Shown here: piece after piece, positions 3,165 through 40,505 of the stretch
How positions within the stretch are numbered: position 1 is the stretch's first letter
How the letters are laid out: every line of letters begins with the position of its first letter
DNA from: an uncultured cyanobacterium
GTDB lineage: Bacteria > Cyanobacteriota > Cyanobacteriia > Cyanobacteriales > Nostocaceae
Assembly: GCA_903848645.1 (NCBI GenBank)
Contig: CAINGU010000059.1
Coordinates: 55,038-119,037, forward strand
Direction: 5' to 3'
Length of the DNA stretch: 64,000 bases
Translations under genes and position numbers: made by a program
The notes under the pieces: model-generated
What the model was told of the DNA's origin: nothing
The model's input: the letters and a program-made list of their open reading frames with translations, nothing else
Databases searched by the model: none

Positions 3165-3611
3165 TCACCCATTGGTAAATAAAATGGGAGTATCAATAAT
3201 CTTCAACTGAATTAAAAGTACAATTAGTAATGTATATATAGTTGAAGAAATGAGACTGTTAAATAACTCTTTTTTGAGATTACGCTCTTGATTTTCTTTT
3301 TGCAACATATCTACTGATCCAAACTGCATCAACAGTATACCTAGAATATTTGATAGCCAGTAGCCAAGAATAGTACAAGGAAAAAGCAATTTAGGCGATA
3401 ATAAACTACATAAATACCCAAAAAAGTAAGCAATGGGTAGGTTAAATAATAAGTCATTCCACCAACATAGAGGAGAAAGCAAGTATCCCAACACTAACAA
3501 GAATCCACCTCTGAGTTTCTTCCAAATGTTCATGCTTGGCTGTGCTAAAGAGATTTGTGTGTTTTCGCTATTGATACTGACTTTTGGACTTTCTGCTTGG
3601 ATGTTGGTCAT
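3165..3611 (-). CDS. Hypothetical membrane protein
   Basis: 148-aa ORF with several hydrophobic segments and an LSPLCWWNDL motif. Co-directional with the upstream tauE-DUF1634 genes. Confidence 0.75.
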   Translation of the reverse strand: MTNIQAESPKVSINSENTQISLAQPSMNIWKKLRGGFLLVLGYLLSPLCWWNDLLFNLPIAYFFGYLCSLLSPKLLFPCTILGYWLSNILGILLMQFGSVDMLQKENQERNLKKELFNSLISSTIYTLLIVLLIQLKIIDTPILFTNG

Positions 3612-3704
3612 AAAACTACACTAATTCTATCGTCTTAGTGTAGTTTAACTTAAGAAGTGAGAAAATGTCCAACATTGAGCAATAGTCATGAGTTGTGGAA
3701 AATA

Positions 3705-9132: not shown

Positions 9133-9148
9133 TACAGTAAGTTGATAG
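9133..9148 (+). promoter_or_regulatory. Candidate Rrf2 operator, site B
   Basis: TACAGTAAGTTGATAG, 13/16 identical to the site at the Rrf2 start (12249-12264). Confidence 0.55.
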
Positions 9149-9181
9149 AGATGCCGTAGTTTTTATCAAGAATGGCAGAAA

Positions 9182-9292: not shown

Positions 9293-9468
9293 GGTTGTGA
9301 TTACAACTTGGTATCAAAAATTACACTTTAAAAGTAATAAAAGTTTACTTACAAGATTTATAAATAGTCATCTTGAACAAACTTAGACGGCGATTTTTTG
9401 TATTCATAAAATTAAGTCTATCCAAACCTATCTTCTTCATTTTTCAACTAACTTACATTAATACGAGT

Positions 9469-10266
9469 ATGGACTACTTATTACTACCAGGTTTCAGCTT
9501 TTTTATTGGCATCATTGTGGGTTTAACAGGTATAGGTGGTGCATCTTTGATCACTCCCATGTTGATTTTTGTTTTTCAAGTCCCACCTTCTATTGCTATC
9601 AGTTCTGATGTGGTTGCAGCCACATTAATGAAAGTAGTAGGGGGAGTGAAACACTGGCAACAGAAAACTCTTGATTTAGAAATAGTTAAATGGCTATCAA
9701 TGGGTAGTGTTTCTGGTTCTTTATTGGGTGTAGGAGTTTTATCCCAACTCAGACAAAGTGGAGAACATAACCTCGATAACCTCTTGCTGCGGTTACTGGG
9801 AGTCATGATTCTGATAGTGACATTGACAGCATTAATACAAATGTTGTTGATGACATTTTTCCCGAAAGTTAATTTACCCGAACTGCCAAAATTAAATTTA
9901 AAAACCAATCAAGGACGTTTTCTGACTTTACTTATTGGCGCAATTTTAGGCTTTTGTGTGGGGATGACAAGCGTTTCATCAGGCTCTATGTTTGCCTTAG
10001 CTTTGATCGCATTTTTCCAGTTAGATGCCCGAAAATTGGTGGGTACAGATATTACTCAAGCCGCCATTTTACTAATATTTACGTCTCTGGGACATCTAAC
10101 TTTAGGAACTGTTGATTGGAGTCTAGTCATACCTATTTGGATAGGTTCTGTTCCTGGAGTTCTTATTGGTGCTAAACTTTGCGACATTACTCCTCAACGT
10201 CCACTAAGATTTATTATCTATAGTATCTTAATGATGGTAAGTTGGAAATTAGTCGCACAAGCGTAA
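9469..10266 (+). CDS. TauE/SafE (TSUP) family permease, second subfamily
   Basis: VGLTGIGGASLITP, GMTSVSSGS and LVGTDI motifs. Probable start is ATG at 9469. Confidence 0.92.
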   Translation: MDYLLLPGFSFFIGIIVGLTGIGGASLITPMLIFVFQVPPSIAISSDVVAATLMKVVGGVKHWQQKTLDLEIVKWLSMGSVSGSLLGVGVLSQLRQSGEHNLDNLLLRLLGVMILIVTLTALIQMLLMTFFPKVNLPELPKLNLKTNQGRFLTLLIGAILGFCVGMTSVSSGSMFALALIAFFQLDARKLVGTDITQAAILLIFTSLGHLTLGTVDWSLVIPIWIGSVPGVLIGAKLCDITPQRPLRFIIYSILMMVSWKLVAQA

Positions 10267-10937: not shown

Positions 10938-11043
10938 GGTAAACTTGGATAATATACTCTTTAGTAAGAAGTCAGGAGAGGAATTTAAAAAGAAGTCATA
11001 ATAATTGTAACTCTAAATTTAAATTTTATTAAACTTATCTAAA

Positions 11044-11775: not shown

Positions 11776-12258
11776 CTAAATGTAATACATGGGATTATAT
11801 TGGGCGCGAATCTCTCTTTCTTGACATAAATCTTGGAGTGTATAGCCGCGCAAAACCTCAATCGAAGCCGCGTTAGCTTGCTGCCAGATTTCCAGAACTA
11901 AAATTTTTTCTATGGTTGGAGTCTCGGAGCTTTCTTTCTCTTTCCGTTCACCTTCCACCAAGGTAACAATTTCTAGCAAAGTAATTTGCCAAGGCTCACG
12001 CATTAATACGAAACCTCCTTTTGAGCCACGTTGACTCTGTACTAAACCGGCACGTCGCAGTTGAGTGAGAATTTGTTCAAGATACCGTTCCGGGACGGGT
12101 TGCTTGGCGGCAATCTCGTTCATGGTTAGGGGAACTTTTTTATCGTGATGTCTGGCTAGTTCTAACAGTGCTAGGAGCGCATATTCCACTTTCGCCGAAA
12201 GATCCAGAAGAGCATAGTTTTGACTATTCAAATCTGTATTCAGAATACTACTGTACAT
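11776..12258 (-). CDS. Rrf2-family transcriptional regulator (CymR-like)
   Basis: KVEYALLALLEL, YLEQIL and SQRGSKGGFVL wHTH motifs. Only one Cys; C-terminus PMYYI. The true start may be TTG at 12231. Confidence 0.93.
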   Translation of the reverse strand: MYSSILNTDLNSQNYALLDLSAKVEYALLALLELARHHDKKVPLTMNEIAAKQPVPERYLEQILTQLRRAGLVQSQRGSKGGFVLMREPWQITLLEIVTLVEGERKEKESSETPTIEKILVLEIWQQANAASIEVLRGYTLQDLCQEREIRAQYNPMYYI

Positions 12259-12264
12259 TGATAG
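12249..12264 (+). promoter_or_regulatory. Candidate Rrf2 autoregulatory operator, site A
   Basis: TACTGTACATTGATAG overlaps or immediately precedes the Rrf2 start codon. Confidence 0.6.
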
Positions 12265-12525
12265 ATTTATCGGCTTTTAACCGCAATTAGTTTTATTTTA
12301 AGTGTTAAATGTGATATTATCACACTTGCACTAAATAAAGTATCATAACTCTATCGGATTTAAGGTGATTATCTGCAAAATTCTCAAAATTGCTTAACAC
12401 TCACTTGTCGCACTTCATTTTACAAGAGAAATACAAGTATTAAAATTTACTATATTTTATCTTGTATATACTTGAATGTCATTGGTAATTAATCTGCACA
12501 ACATCCCTGGCTTTTGCTTGTGAAA

Positions 12526-12570
12526 ACCAATTACCAATTACCAATTACCTATTACCTATTACCTATTACC
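12526..12570. repeat. STRR heptamer array (ACCAATT/ACCTATT)
   Basis: About six tandem heptamers; they also encode the last codons (GNR-stop) of the CHASE2 kinase. Confidence 0.85.
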
Positions 12571-24439: not shown

Positions 24440-25525
24440 TTAGCGTCGTCCACGTTGAATTTTGTCAAATATAGCACCATCAGCAAATAATTTTTTCTGG
24501 ACACCACTCCAACCGCCAAGATCACCTACAGTATAAAGTCTGGCAATATAGGGGAATTTATTTTTTACTTCTTTGGAGACAGTTGGGTCAACTGGACGGA
24601 AACCAACTTTAGCAAATTCACGCTGTGCTTCTGGAGTGAAAAGGAACTTGACGAAAGCTTCAGAAACCTCACGATTTCCATGCTTATCAACATTTTTATC
24701 CACAACTGCCACAGGTGCATCTATAGAAATATTGACTGGAGGAACTATGTAAGAAGTATCTGTTTTGCCTTGCTGTGCAGCTAAAATCACTTCGTTTTCA
24801 TAGTTTAGTAATACATCACCTTGACCTTTTTTGTAAAAAGCATCACTTGATTCCCTGGCATCTTTAGGTAGGGCTACTACATTTTTAAACACATCTGTTA
24901 CAAACTTCAACGCCTGGGTTTCATTTCCGCCATTTTTAACGACTGAACCCCATAAAGCGAGAAAATTCCATTTAGCCCCACCAGATGTCTTGGGATTTGC
25001 AGTCACAATCTTAACATCAGGCTTTGTTAAATCAGCCCAATTCTTGATCTTTTTCGGATTACCAGCGCGAGTTTCCAGTGCAACTACTGAACGGGTAACA
25101 ATTGCGTTATTTGGAGATTCCTTTTCCCAACCTGGTTGAATCAAGCCAGCTTGTTCAATTTTTTTAATGTCTCCAGCCAATGCTAAAGCTACCACATCTG
25201 CGCCCAAACCATCAATAACAGCGCGGGTTTGCGAGCCAGAACCACCGTAACTCTCTTTAATCACCACTTCTTGACCTTTTTCTCTTTTCCATTTTGCCAC
25301 AAAATCGGGAATGATTTTAGCGTAAGCGGCCTTGGTGACTGCGTAAGAAACTAAAGTAATTTCAACTTTTTTGCCACTTTGACTCATTAGTTGTGTTTTT
25401 TGGGCTGTACCTGCAAATACAGGCATAATAGTGCTTATACTTAAACCTGTGGCTAAGAATAAAGCAGGAAATAACGGCTTTGTTGTTTGTAGGAATTTTG
25501 CAGGGTTTGAAGAATTATCTGTCAT
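24440..25525 (-). CDS. sbp: Sulfate/thiosulfate-binding periplasmic protein, paralog without a lipobox
   Basis: SYGGSGSQTRAV, NPKTSGGAKWNFL and NYENE motifs. Signal peptide ends V-F-A with no Cys. Confidence 0.93.
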   Translation of the reverse strand: MTDNSSNPAKFLQTTKPLFPALFLATGLSISTIMPVFAGTAQKTQLMSQSGKKVEITLVSYAVTKAAYAKIIPDFVAKWKREKGQEVVIKESYGGSGSQTRAVIDGLGADVVALALAGDIKKIEQAGLIQPGWEKESPNNAIVTRSVVALETRAGNPKKIKNWADLTKPDVKIVTANPKTSGGAKWNFLALWGSVVKNGGNETQALKFVTDVFKNVVALPKDARESSDAFYKKGQGDVLLNYENEVILAAQQGKTDTSYIVPPVNISIDAPVAVVDKNVDKHGNREVSEAFVKFLFTPEAQREFAKVGFRPVDPTVSKEVKNKFPYIARLYTVGDLGGWSGVQKKLFADGAIFDKIQRGRR

Positions 25526-25566
25526 GGGATGTCCTTAAATTGGTTTGAATATAATCTACGAAAACT

Positions 25567-25582
25567 CTGTCGAGATACAGTA
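25567..25582 (-). promoter_or_regulatory. Candidate Rrf2 operator, site C
   Basis: Minus strand reads TACTGTATCTCGACAG, 12/16 identical to site A, 42 nt upstream of the sbp start. Confidence 0.5.
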
Positions 25583-26012
25583 TTTACTGTCTAGAAAAAG
25601 AGCGTACCAGATGTAATAAATAAAATCAATAGTTTTTGCACTTAAAAACAACTATTTTCCTATCGAGTATTGTATGTATTAAATATTTTATTTATTTTTG
25701 TAATTATTTAATTGCCTATAAAGTTTATATAGTAGATATTTTGACAAATTAAATTCTATATTTATTTTCTAGTGTTTATTCAAATAAAGTATTAAAAATA
25801 GCAAGTTAAATAAGTAATTTTTCTTTTTTCACCTCCATAAAGATCATCGAAAATTGATACTTATCATTTAAAGGCATTGTAATTTCTCTTGAAACTGGTA
25901 AAATCACCATATTCCCTATCGTCAATATGCAGTTTTTACTGGTGTTGATAACCAGATACCTGCAATAATGGTATTTTTATTAATTAACCGTAGTTTCACG
26001 GGAGGATAAAAA

Positions 26013-27125
26013 ATGAATTTGTGGCAGCAATTACGTAAAGGACTACAACTTCGGTTCAGTCCAAATTCGCTCAAAGGCTTTGTCTCACTTGTTTTAGTCG
26101 GAACGGTATTGAGTGTATCTCTTGCTGCTTGCTCCGGGACAAACAACAGTAATTCCCCTAGTGCAACTACTGATACGGGTAAAAAACAGAATGTAGAATT
26201 AACCCTTGTATCCTTTGCTGTTACTAAAGCTGCTCACGCAGCTATTATTCCTAAATTTGTGGAAAAATGGCAAAAGGAACATAACCAAACTGTGGTTTTC
26301 AAACAAAGCTATGGTGGTTCTGGTTCGCAAACTCGTGCGGTAGTTGATGGTTTAGAAGCAGATGTTGTTCATTTGGCTCTCGCTCTGGATACGCAAAAAA
26401 TTGAAAAAGCGGGATTAATTCAACCTGGGTGGGAGAAAAAATTTCCTAATAATGGTATTGTTTCTAAGTCTGTTGCAGCTTTAGTAACTCGTGAAGGCAA
26501 TCCCAAAGGGATTAAGAATTGGGCTGATTTAGCGAAAGATGATGTTAAACTAATTACCGCAGATCCGAAAACTTCCGGGGTAGCTCGTTGGAATTTTCTC
26601 GCACTTTGGAATTCAGTAATTAAAACTGGTGGAGACGAGGCCAAAGCCACTGAGTTTGTGACTAAGGTTTATAAAAATGTCCCTGTGTTAACAAAAGATG
26701 CTCGTGAAGCTACAGACGCATTTTTTAAACAAGGTCAAGGTGATGCTTTAATAAACTATGAAAATGAAATTGTTTTGGCAAAAGATAAGGGCGAAAAAAC
26801 AAATTACATTCTCCCTGATGTAAATATTTCCATTGATAATCCTATTGCTGTTGTAGATAAAAATGTTGATAAACATGGTAATAGGGAGGTTGCAGAAGCT
26901 TTTGTGAAATATCTATTTACTCCCGAAGCACAACAGGAATTTGCTAAAGTAGGATTTCGCCCTGTAGATGAAACAGTAGCTAAGAGTAAAGAATTTGTTG
27001 ATAAATATCCCCAAATAAAAATTTTAGGTACAGTTCAAGAATTAGGTGGTTGGGGTGCTGTTCAGAAAAAATTCTTTGCTGAAGGGGCAATTTTTGACCA
27101 AATTCAAGCTAAAAATAAACGGTAA
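26013..27125 (+). CDS. sbpA: Sulfate-binding lipoprotein of the sulfate ABC transporter
   Basis: GGAGG RBS, lipobox LAAC, SYGGSGSQTRAV, DPKTSGVARWNFL, NYENE. Followed by cysT and cysW. Confidence 0.95.
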   Translation: MNLWQQLRKGLQLRFSPNSLKGFVSLVLVGTVLSVSLAACSGTNNSNSPSATTDTGKKQNVELTLVSFAVTKAAHAAIIPKFVEKWQKEHNQTVVFKQSYGGSGSQTRAVVDGLEADVVHLALALDTQKIEKAGLIQPGWEKKFPNNGIVSKSVAALVTREGNPKGIKNWADLAKDDVKLITADPKTSGVARWNFLALWNSVIKTGGDEAKATEFVTKVYKNVPVLTKDAREATDAFFKQGQGDALINYENEIVLAKDKGEKTNYILPDVNISIDNPIAVVDKNVDKHGNREVAEAFVKYLFTPEAQQEFAKVGFRPVDETVAKSKEFVDKYPQIKILGTVQELGGWGAVQKKFFAEGAIFDQIQAKNKR

Positions 27126-27138
27126 TTAACAAGCCCTG

Positions 27139-27244
27139 GTGATTATAAATCACGGCTATACAAACAAAGTCCGCCTGCGCGGACTAGGGAAATTTAGAAC
27201 CCACGCAGGTGGGTTTTGCTTGTATAGCCGTGACTTATAGTCGC
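27139..27244. repeat. Multi-stem structured dispersed repeat, copy 1
   Basis: Outer stem CACGGCTATAC/GTATAGCCGTG encloses hairpins GTCCGCCTGCGCGGAC and AACCCACGCAGGTGGGTT. Homologous copies at 40838-40954 and 57143-57257. Confidence 0.85.
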
Positions 27245-27281
27245 CTGAATTTCTAAATAACAACTAAAAACCAACTAAATT

Positions 27282-28151
27282 ATGACTGGATCTGCGGCTG
27301 TACAAACTAATATTAAACCTCCCATTTGGAAGGTATTTTTAGATAATTTGATTCATCTTCCTTGGACTTGGCGGATTACTTTGGGATATTTAACTGTGAT
27401 GTTATTTATCCCTATTATCGCCATGTTTCTCAAGGCTAGTACGGAATCTCCAGAGAAGTTTTGGGAAATTGCCACCAGCGAGTTAGCATTGGCAACTTAT
27501 AATGTTACCTTTGTGACTTCATTATTTGCAGCTTTGCTCAATGGCGTATTTGGAACTTTGATTGCTTGGGTATTGGTGCGTTATGATTTTCCGTTTAAAC
27601 GGATTATTGATGCCACTGTAGATTTACCCTTTGCTTTGCCAACATCTGTCGCAGGTTTAACACTGGCAACGGTGTACAGTGATAATGGTTGGTTGGGTTC
27701 ATTGTTAGCACCAATGGGAATTAAGGTATCCTTTACTCGCTTGGGAGTTGGGGTAGCAATGATATTTATATCTTTACCTTTTGTGGTGAGAACTGTGCAA
27801 CCGGTACTGCAAGAAATGGAATCAGAAATTGAAGAAGCAGCTTGGAGTTTAGGTGCTTCAGAATGGCAAACTTTTTGGAAAGTGATTTTACCCCCTTTAT
27901 TTCCGACAATTTTAACTGGTGTAGCTTTGGGTTTTTCCCGCGCTGTGGGAGAGTATGGTTCAACAGTAATTATTTCTTCCAATACACCATATAAAGATTT
28001 GATTGCACCTGTGTTAATTTTCCAGCGGTTGGAACAATATGATTATGCTGGTGCAACTGTAATTGGTGTGGTTTTATTAGGAATTTCCTTGGTGATGTTA
28101 TTAGCAATTAATTTCTTACAAGCTTGGGCAAGAAGATATGACAATAGATAA
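27282..28151 (+). CDS. cysT: Sulfate ABC transporter permease CysT
   Basis: [23 protein letters not shown] and [10 protein letters not shown] motifs. Confidence 0.96.
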
Positions 28152-28977
28152 AATCAGAAAACCAAAAAAACAAAGTTGGGTGCCGGCAGTTTTAATTGGG
28201 ATTGCGATCGCTTACTTATTTCTGGTTCAATATATTCCAGCTATTAATGTTTTTTTTGAAGCTTTCAAAAAGGGAACTGGACCATTTTTATCTAACCTGG
28301 CAAAACCGGAATTTCTCCACGCAGCTTGGTTAACCCTGTTACTGGCTGCGATTTCTATCCCTGTGAATGCCGTATTTGGATTATGTGCGGCTTGGGCGAT
28401 CGCTCGGCATAAATTCCCAGGACGCGCTATAGTTCTCAGTATCATTGATTTGCCCTTTTCCATCTCTCCAGTTGTCGCCGGGTTAATGATAGTCCTACTA
28501 TACGGAAGAAATGGCTGGTTTGGGCCTTGGCTACAAGCCCATGATATTCAAATCGTCTTTGCTTTTCCAGGCATGGTACTCGCTACTGCTTTTGTGAGTA
28601 TGCCTTTTGTAGCCAGAGAAGTAATTCCTATTTTAGAAGAATTTGGTAAAGACCAAGAAGAAGCTGCGAGGACATTAGGCGCAAACGATTGGCAAACTTT
28701 TTGGCGAGTAACTTTACCCAGTATTCGCTGGGGTTTACTCTACGGTTTAATCTTAACCAATGCTAGAGCTATGGGTGAATTTGGGGCAGTTTCTGTGGTA
28801 TCTGGTAACATTGCCAATACAACTCAAAGTTTACCATTATTTGTGGAAGATGCTTACAAACAATATGAAACTGAAGCTGCTTTTTCTGCGGCTGTATTGT
28901 TAGCATTTTTAGCAGTAATTACCTTGATACTCAAGGAAATTTTAGAACGAAAAACCCACATTAAAGAAGTTGAATAA
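28138..28977 (+). CDS. cysW: Sulfate ABC transporter permease CysW
   Basis: [22 protein letters not shown] and [10 protein letters not shown] motifs. Overlaps the cysT stop. Confidence 0.96.
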
Positions 28978-40179: not shown

Positions 40180-40446
40180 TCACCAATCACTAATGCTATT
40201 TTCATCCCAGACTTGCAATTTCAATTCTTGTAAATAGGTTAACCCATTTTGAATTTGTCCATCTGTTCCTTGTAAATCTAAGTCAAACCAACCATCACCT
40301 ACAGCATTCTGTCCGAGAATTGCGGCTTTGATATTCACAGTTAAGCCATATTCGGAAACTAGGCGAGAAATTACAGGTTCTTGATGATGATCTTGAGGAA
40401 TTCTGACGCGAATTCGCTTATTGGTCAGGATATTTTCATTACTCAT
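40180..40446 (-). CDS. NIL-domain protein
   Basis: 88 aa; EPVISRLVSEYGLTVNIKAAIL..GWFDLDLQG is the NIL pattern. Confidence 0.88.
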   Translation of the reverse strand: MSNENILTNKRIRVRIPQDHHQEPVISRLVSEYGLTVNIKAAILGQNAVGDGWFDLDLQGTDGQIQNGLTYLQELKLQVWDENSISDW

Positions 40447-40505
40447 AACAACTCCTAAGATGTAATTTAATAGTTGTCTAAAAATTGGTAATTACCAGTA
40501 TTTAA

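Follow-up and report, generated by a model that had tools for sequence, protein, structure and literature searches.

Candidate operators of a conserved sulfur regulon in the divergent sbp/sbpA promoter region of a bloom-forming cyanobacterium

Sulfur sensing and the control of sulfate uptake are poorly understood in cyanobacteria. In the 64-kb stretch of DNA analysed here (the window), two divergent units, sbp and sbpA-cysT-cysW, are separated by a spacer of 487 bp (25526-26012). About 13 kb from this spacer lie a TauE gene, two CadD genes and the gene of an Rrf2-family regulator (Table 1). Is the sulfate importer controlled together with this distant cluster, and if so, through which sites and by which protein? 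The original prediction placed the importer in one regulon with the TauE/CadD cluster on the strength of three 16-mers in the spacer, compared with a 16-mer at rrf2 (site A, TACTGTACATTGATAG, 12249-12264). The identity of the importer genes is clear: both Sbp proteins passed TIGR00971, and CysT and CysW passed their equivalog models. SbpA is 95% identical to SbpA of Anabaena sp. UHCC 0187, and the source species is a heterocystous, filamentous member of the bloom-forming Anabaena/Dolichospermum group.

Table 1. Genes, predicted promoters and conserved elements in the window, with examples of the Crp-family gene in relatives
Feature	Position	Strand	Remarks
Dyad TACACTA...TAGTGTA at orf148	3617-3642		22.7 bits; symmetric arms; 6 nt upstream of orf148 ATG
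orf148	3165-3611	minus	no Pfam family
Site B, upstream of tauE-2	9133-9158		27.0 bits; 11/12; best dyad in window
TauE	9373-10266		~13 kb from sbp/sbpA spacer
Rrf2-family, CymR-like regulator	11776-12258	minus	PF02082 at 1.3e-34
Site A dyad, over rrf2 start codon	12249-12274		20.2 bits; one good arm plus core
sbp, sulfate-binding protein	24440-25525	minus	TIGR00971, 281 bits (cut-off 155.5)
O-sbp, TACGAAA-ACTCTGTCGAGA-TACAGTA	25557-25582		26-bp dyad; 21.7 bits; third best in window
Predicted sbp promoter	25601-25629	minus	-35 TTGATT (25624-25629), 17-nt spacer, extended -10 TGGTACGCT (25601-25609)
Conserved element upstream of sbp, holds site 2	25650-25681	minus	non-canonical as dyad
Predicted sbpA promoter P1, TTGTAA-16 nt-TG-n-TAAAAT	25877-25904	plus	consensus scan
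22-bp dyad CATATTCCCTATCGTCAATATG, holds site 3	25908-25929	plus	at predicted sbpA start
O-sbpA, AATGGTA-TTTTTATTAATT-AACCGTA	25967-25992		second 26-bp dyad; 13.1 bits; fifth best in window
sbpA-cysT-cysW, second sulfate-binding protein and two permeases	26013-28977	plus	TIGR00971, 276 bits; TIGR02139, 417 bits; TIGR02140, 390 bits
NIL-domain gene	40210-40482	minus	
Crp-family gene, examples in relatives	L052:10684-11274; L081:3188-3775		

All three 16-mers were found in the spacer: TACTGTATCTCGACAG (site 1; 25567-25582, minus strand), 42 nt from the sbp ATG at 25525; CTATCGAGTATTGTAT (site 2; 25660-25675, plus strand); and CTATCGTCAATATGCA (site 3; 25916-25931, plus strand), 82 nt from the sbpA ATG at 26013. 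The match of 12 in 16 bases between site 1 and site A was also counted correctly, but it is at chance level. Shuffled windows held 10.6 ± 2.2 matches of at least 12/16 to site A, compared with 6 observed, and the probability of at least one such match in a 487-nt spacer was 0.11. We therefore dropped this match as evidence.

The element that the promoters share is longer, a 26-bp dyad TACnGTA-N12-TACnGTA with yGATAGr in its centre. A site was taken as a member if it had two TACnGTA arms at a spacing of exactly 12 bp, and it was scored out of 12. The samples were 80 orthologous sbpA loci and 80 metagenome rrf2 loci. A weight matrix trained solely on the rrf2 loci (median of the training sites, 23.8 bits) was then run over the window. 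Its five top matches were at tauE-2, orf148, sbp, rrf2 and sbpA, in descending order (27.0 to 13.1 bits, Table 1), and the sixth scored 10.5 bits. Under a first-order Markov null, 0.37 matches of at least 13 bits are expected per 64 kb, where five were observed; at 20 bits or more, 300 simulated windows held no match and the real one held four. In the sbpA loci, dyads of at least 10/12 were enriched 20-fold upstream of sbpA (57 in 48.7 kb, as against 43 in 745 kb). The centre of the matrix, T-y-G-A-T-A-G-r, is informative, and this is why the 16-mers looked alike.

In the alignments the spacer drifts and the arms are kept, with an unconstrained base at the centre of each arm. The 26-bp dyad arms showed no covariation beyond composition, no excess of complementarity and no G-U bias. 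The element is therefore a DNA site, and a reading of it as an RNA hairpin was rejected. A search of Rfam found no known RNA family in the sbp/sbpA spacer at E ≤ 1. In a clade of Aphanizomenon/Dolichospermum planctonicum (L010-L017), the sbp-proximal site has a symmetric arm variant, TACGATA-N12-TATCGTA. Both arms have changed together there and in the orf148 site of the window, and the set as a whole is without excess complementarity.

Site 1 proved to be a true copy of the motif on these other grounds, as one arm and the core of the dyad O-sbp. One arm of O-sbp matches at 6/6 positions and the other at 4/6, giving 10/12. At a distance of 32 nt from the sbp ATG, the dyad covers about +12 to +37 relative to the start predicted for sbp (about 25594). 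Among loci with a divergent sbp, 26 of 28 had a site of at least 12 bits no more than 120 nt from the sbp ATG, mostly at 27-34 nt; the background for such a site is 0.008 per 120 nt. In the window, the arm nearest the ATG carries two substitutions at near-invariant positions (GT to AA), and the sbp site of the closest relative, L001, is 12/12.

The true site on the sbpA side, O-sbpA, was missing from the original list. It is weak (9/12) and lies 46 nt upstream of the sbpA ATG, in the sbpA leader. Orthologous sites of at least 12 bits no more than 120 nt from the ATG were present in 51 of the 80 sbpA loci, almost all at -43 to -53, and the weak form seen here is common to L007, L008, L014 and L016. 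An extended box resembling a -10 element, TGCAATAAT (25961-25969), abuts the left arm of O-sbpA; Nostoc loci have TATATAAC at this place. The box points to an additional sbpA promoter nearer the gene, with a predicted start at about 25976, which would be occluded by the dyad. At both promoters, GATT or GTTT is conserved after the gene-proximal arm (TACCGTAGATTA at sbp, 25550-25556; AACCGTAGTTTC at sbpA, 25993-25999), so that conservation reaches asymmetrically towards the gene.

The matrix rejected the other two 16-mers as copies of the 26-bp dyad. Site 2, originally read as a variant with a shortened spacer, scored -4.6 bits, with an arm 1 nt out of register and 8/12 at best. Site 3, originally read as a half-site, scored -6.4 bits (3/12) and belongs to a separate dyad of 22 bp. 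Both are in strongly conserved blocks, and the CTATCG core is all that they share with the 26-bp dyad. Two exact copies of CTATCG/CGATAG in the spacer are nevertheless unusual (P = 0.006), and an 8-bp core, TCGATAGr, is common to the 26-bp dyad, the 22-bp dyad and the site-2 element. This shared core could mean composite or competitive recognition by two proteins.

The core of site 2, TCGATAGG (25659-25666), is some 65 to 72 nt upstream of the start predicted for sbp. The block around it is near-invariant in close relatives, but distant Nostocales keep only CTATCG-N9-TGTAT, so the arm with the spacer shorter by one nucleotide is a lineage-specific coincidence. The sbp promoter itself was unreported by the consensus scan. 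Its predicted position comes solely from the conservation of CATCTGATAnnCTCTTTTT and TTGAT across Nostocales. Public RNA runs from which starts could be mapped were sought for this organism and for L065, and none were found.

The 22-bp dyad was found in 66 of 80 sbpA promoters and at no other place in about 1.5 Mb of loci, and was accordingly dropped as a multi-target regulon motif. It starts 4 nt past the predicted sbpA -10 box, covering about -3 to +19, and the extended -10 box directly upstream of it, TGnTA(A/G)AAT, is kept across Nostocales. In its stem, 86.5% of cells were paired, one pair covaried (CG/UA), and G-U pairs occurred on the sense strand only (UG 18, GU 7). Its centre inverts between orthologues (CTATCG or CGATAG), the palindromic flanks being unchanged: most have CCCTATCGTC, and L004 (5884-5905), L023, L029, L030 and others have GACGATAGGG. 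The flipping centre and the sense-strand G-U pairs suggest two candidate readings of the 22-bp dyad: a hairpin at the 5' end of the RNA, or an operator to which another protein binds. Its length and its conserved T5 T6 and A17 A18 fit the CRP/NtcA pattern (pentamers at 4-8 and 15-19), and the G-U pairs fit an RNA hairpin equally. Activation by CRP/NtcA would call for a centre near -41.5 or -61.5, and the centre here falls at about +8 relative to P1, whose start is predicted at about 25911.

Which other genes carry the 26-bp dyad? At rrf2, the 16-mer of site A is part of a dyad over the start codon. Counterparts were found at -16 to -22 of rrf2 in L096, L118 and L139, and the sequence is identical in L081. 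A site near -110 of the window's rrf2 scored 6/12. The TauE orthologues in L024, L059 and L141 have upstream dyads of 11-12/12, as site B has in the window. Homologues of orf148 beside tauE/rrf2 in other cyanobacteria also have an upstream dyad; they directly precede tauE beside rrf2 in L141, L142, L145, L146, L128, L153 and L066. For the CadD genes, the matrix scan found no dyad in the 10938-11043 spacer, and we dropped them as regulon members.

Across cyanobacterial loci, the dyad was found upstream of sbp in 21 of 31 genes, sbpA in 36 of 84, rrf2 in 27 of 83 and cysE in 11 of 34. It also preceded crp (12/49), tauE (5/21) and orf148-like genes (3/7). None of 200 genes internal to the operons (cysT, cysW and cysK) had it upstream. 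In the 350 nt upstream of rrf2, dyads were enriched about 10-fold (26 in 29 kb, compared with 37 in 446 kb). They lie mostly at -107 to -135, some at -16 to -22 like site A, and in both orientations; in L049, rrf2 is preceded by two 12/12 sites. These counts, together with the top matches at five promoters of the window, argue for a shared sulfur regulon. The inclusion of the importer, rrf2, tauE and orf148 in this predicted regulon is well supported. The claim that the importer and the TauE/CadD cluster form one regulon thus holds for the dyad shared with rrf2 and tauE, but not for the CadD genes. From the shared sites, the sbp, sbpA, rrf2 and tauE genes are probably switched together by sulfur status.

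The genomic setting is also conserved, with the order sbpA-cysTW-NIL...crp-cysE-rrf2-cysK...tauE, and many Nostoc genomes have one contiguous cluster from sbpA to cysK. In relatives, a cysE-like hexapeptide transferase gene, rrf2 and the gene of a cysK-like PLP enzyme stand in a row. The rrf2 gene of the window lacks the cysE, cysK and crp neighbours. When the region upstream of rrf2 (12259-12551) was compared, homology to the relatives ended at 12397, followed by a Ser/Thr kinase gene. A crp gene was absent from the whole 64 kb. Most relatives, among them the closest (L081-L085), have a Crp-family gene adjoining cysE-rrf2-cysK; it is probably a homologue of CysR. After cysW, nearly all of the loci L001-L078 have genes for stand-alone small NIL-domain proteins, often with three further copies ahead of crp, and none has cysA after cysW. 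An upstream dyad was found in 13 of 130 NIL genes.

The substitutions in O-sbp, the 13 bits of O-sbpA and the lost neighbours of rrf2 suggest that control of sbp and sbpA through the dyads may be weakened in this genome. If these sites were relics of a regulon that persists elsewhere in the lineage, with rrf2 orphaned, control of sbp and sbpA would be weak or gone. The poor -110 site and the end of homology at 12397 would fit such decay. However, O-sbp at 21.7 bits is near the training median, the weak form of O-sbpA recurs in the four loci named above, and site A has its identical copy in L081. The rrf2 gene is intact and 92% identical to relatives. We regard this reading of the sites as relics as rather unlikely.

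The candidate binder is the product of rrf2. The Rrf2 superfamily model aside, the named family that it matches best is CymR (NF047409, 94.8 bits, below the cut-off of 195). Its closest relatives in the PDB are 4cic and CymR of Bacillus subtilis (2y75), the latter being the best named one, and its C-terminus (...PMYYI) aligns with the end of 4cic (...MYYI). The protein has the Rrf2 winged-helix fold, and its translation has a single Cys and no set of Fe-S ligands. The length of the dyad, 26 bp, and the conservation of its outer arms and centre agree with operators of the Rrf2 type, such as those of IscR, NsrR and CymR. The sequence TACnGTA-N12-TACnGTA itself we take to be unrelated to the CymR box.

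All five sites in the window are at or downstream of predicted starts, or at an ATG, and such positions are repressor-like. We infer the following mechanism by analogy. A dimer of the cluster-free, CymR-like Rrf2 protein would bind the dyads when cysteine or sulfur is sufficient, possibly complexed with CysK as Firmicute CymR is, and would block initiation or elongation. Under sulfur limitation it would leave the DNA, and sulfate uptake would be turned on along with TauE and orf148, and with cysE in other genomes. It is reasonably likely, in our judgement, that two operators in the spacer belong to a sulfur regulon conserved among cyanobacteria, with the CymR-like Rrf2 protein as the likeliest binder and acting as a repressor.

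Co-localisation cannot single out Rrf2 as the binder, because crp is beside cysE-rrf2 in most genomes and has its own upstream dyads. The sites could be real operators of the sulfur regulon that are bound by another protein, most plausibly a CysR-like member of the Crp/NtcA family, with rrf2 as a mere member of the regulon. For cyanobacterial sulfate-transport genes, the one regulator described so far is CysR, whose gene belongs to the cys cluster of Synechococcus elongatus; it is described as needed for induction, and no operator has been published for it (PMC12016511). In most loci, cysE-rrf2 has the Crp-family gene as its neighbour, across a divergent spacer that contains the dyad. However, the geometry of the dyad does not suit such a protein. 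CRP/NtcA dimers recognise half-sites with a separation of about 11 bp, for example GTA-N8-TAC or TGTGA-N6-TCACA, but the arm centres of the 26-bp dyad are 19 bp apart (GTA-N12-TAC). Dyads at rrf2 were also found in loci without crp within 4 kb (L114, L116-118, L121, L123-124 and L149), and the window has kept its dyads with no crp gene in 64 kb. For these reasons, we consider a Crp-type binder at the 26-bp dyads improbable. A CysR-like protein may act instead at the 22-bp dyad or the site-2 block. Two regulators might meet on one promoter pair, a cysteine-sensing Rrf2 repressor of the CymR/CysK type at the 26-bp dyads and a second input, provided by a Crp protein of the CysR kind or by a 5' hairpin of the RNA, at both the 22-bp dyad of sbpA and the element upstream of sbp. 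We put this forward as a tentative possibility.

Chance similarity, or a hairpin in the leader RNA in place of a protein-binding DNA site, could be entertained from the chance-level 16-mer match and from the location of O-sbp and O-sbpA in predicted 5' leaders. This reading has already been largely refuted and seems to us extremely improbable. The scores of the extended dyad far exceed the null, and its position is conserved in dozens of genomes. The arms show neither the covariation nor the G-U bias of a stem, their centre base is free to vary, and the Rfam search was negative. The same element is also found upstream of promoters, as at -107 to -135 of rrf2, in both orientations.

The results give exact, conserved positions of candidate operators on the sulfate-importer promoters and tie them to a candidate cysteine-sensing repressor. 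They also tie in the TauE and orf148 membrane proteins and place the neighbouring transporter cluster in the context of sulfur. In the bloom-forming Anabaena/Dolichospermum group, the control of nutrient uptake is of ecological interest.

Three known systems can be compared with this one. The type-1 and type-2 operators of IscR and those of NsrR are likewise imperfect dyads of 23-26 bp, read by a winged-helix dimer and often autoregulatory. The two proteins sense by an Fe-S cluster, in contrast to the single Cys here, and their half-site sequences differ. CysR of S. elongatus PCC 7942 resembles the present case in that a homologous Crp-family gene is in the same neighbourhood of relatives; it differs in its protein family (Crp/NtcA), and the 26-bp geometry misfits a CRP-type dimer.

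The third system is CymR-CysK of Firmicutes (B. subtilis and Staphylococcus aureus), where CymR of B. subtilis, in the presence of cysteine, binds DNA as a complex with CysK (PMC9338935). O-acetylserine is expected to release DNA bound by a regulator of the CymR type. A mechanism of this type has so far been described in Firmicutes only, and we found no report in the literature of a CymR-like regulon in cyanobacteria; a CymR box was sought in PMC13689551, which gives none. The two systems differ in phylum, the window protein scores below the CymR equivalog cut-off, a sulfate ABC importer and TauE are among the predicted cyanobacterial targets, and the partnership with CysK and the signal are putative in the cyanobacterial case. 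They are alike in a regulator that is a cluster-free Rrf2 protein, in the location of the relatives' rrf2 between cysE-like and cysK-like genes, in putative targets in sulfur uptake and cysteine metabolism, and in a long operator (~26-27 bp) at repressor-like positions.
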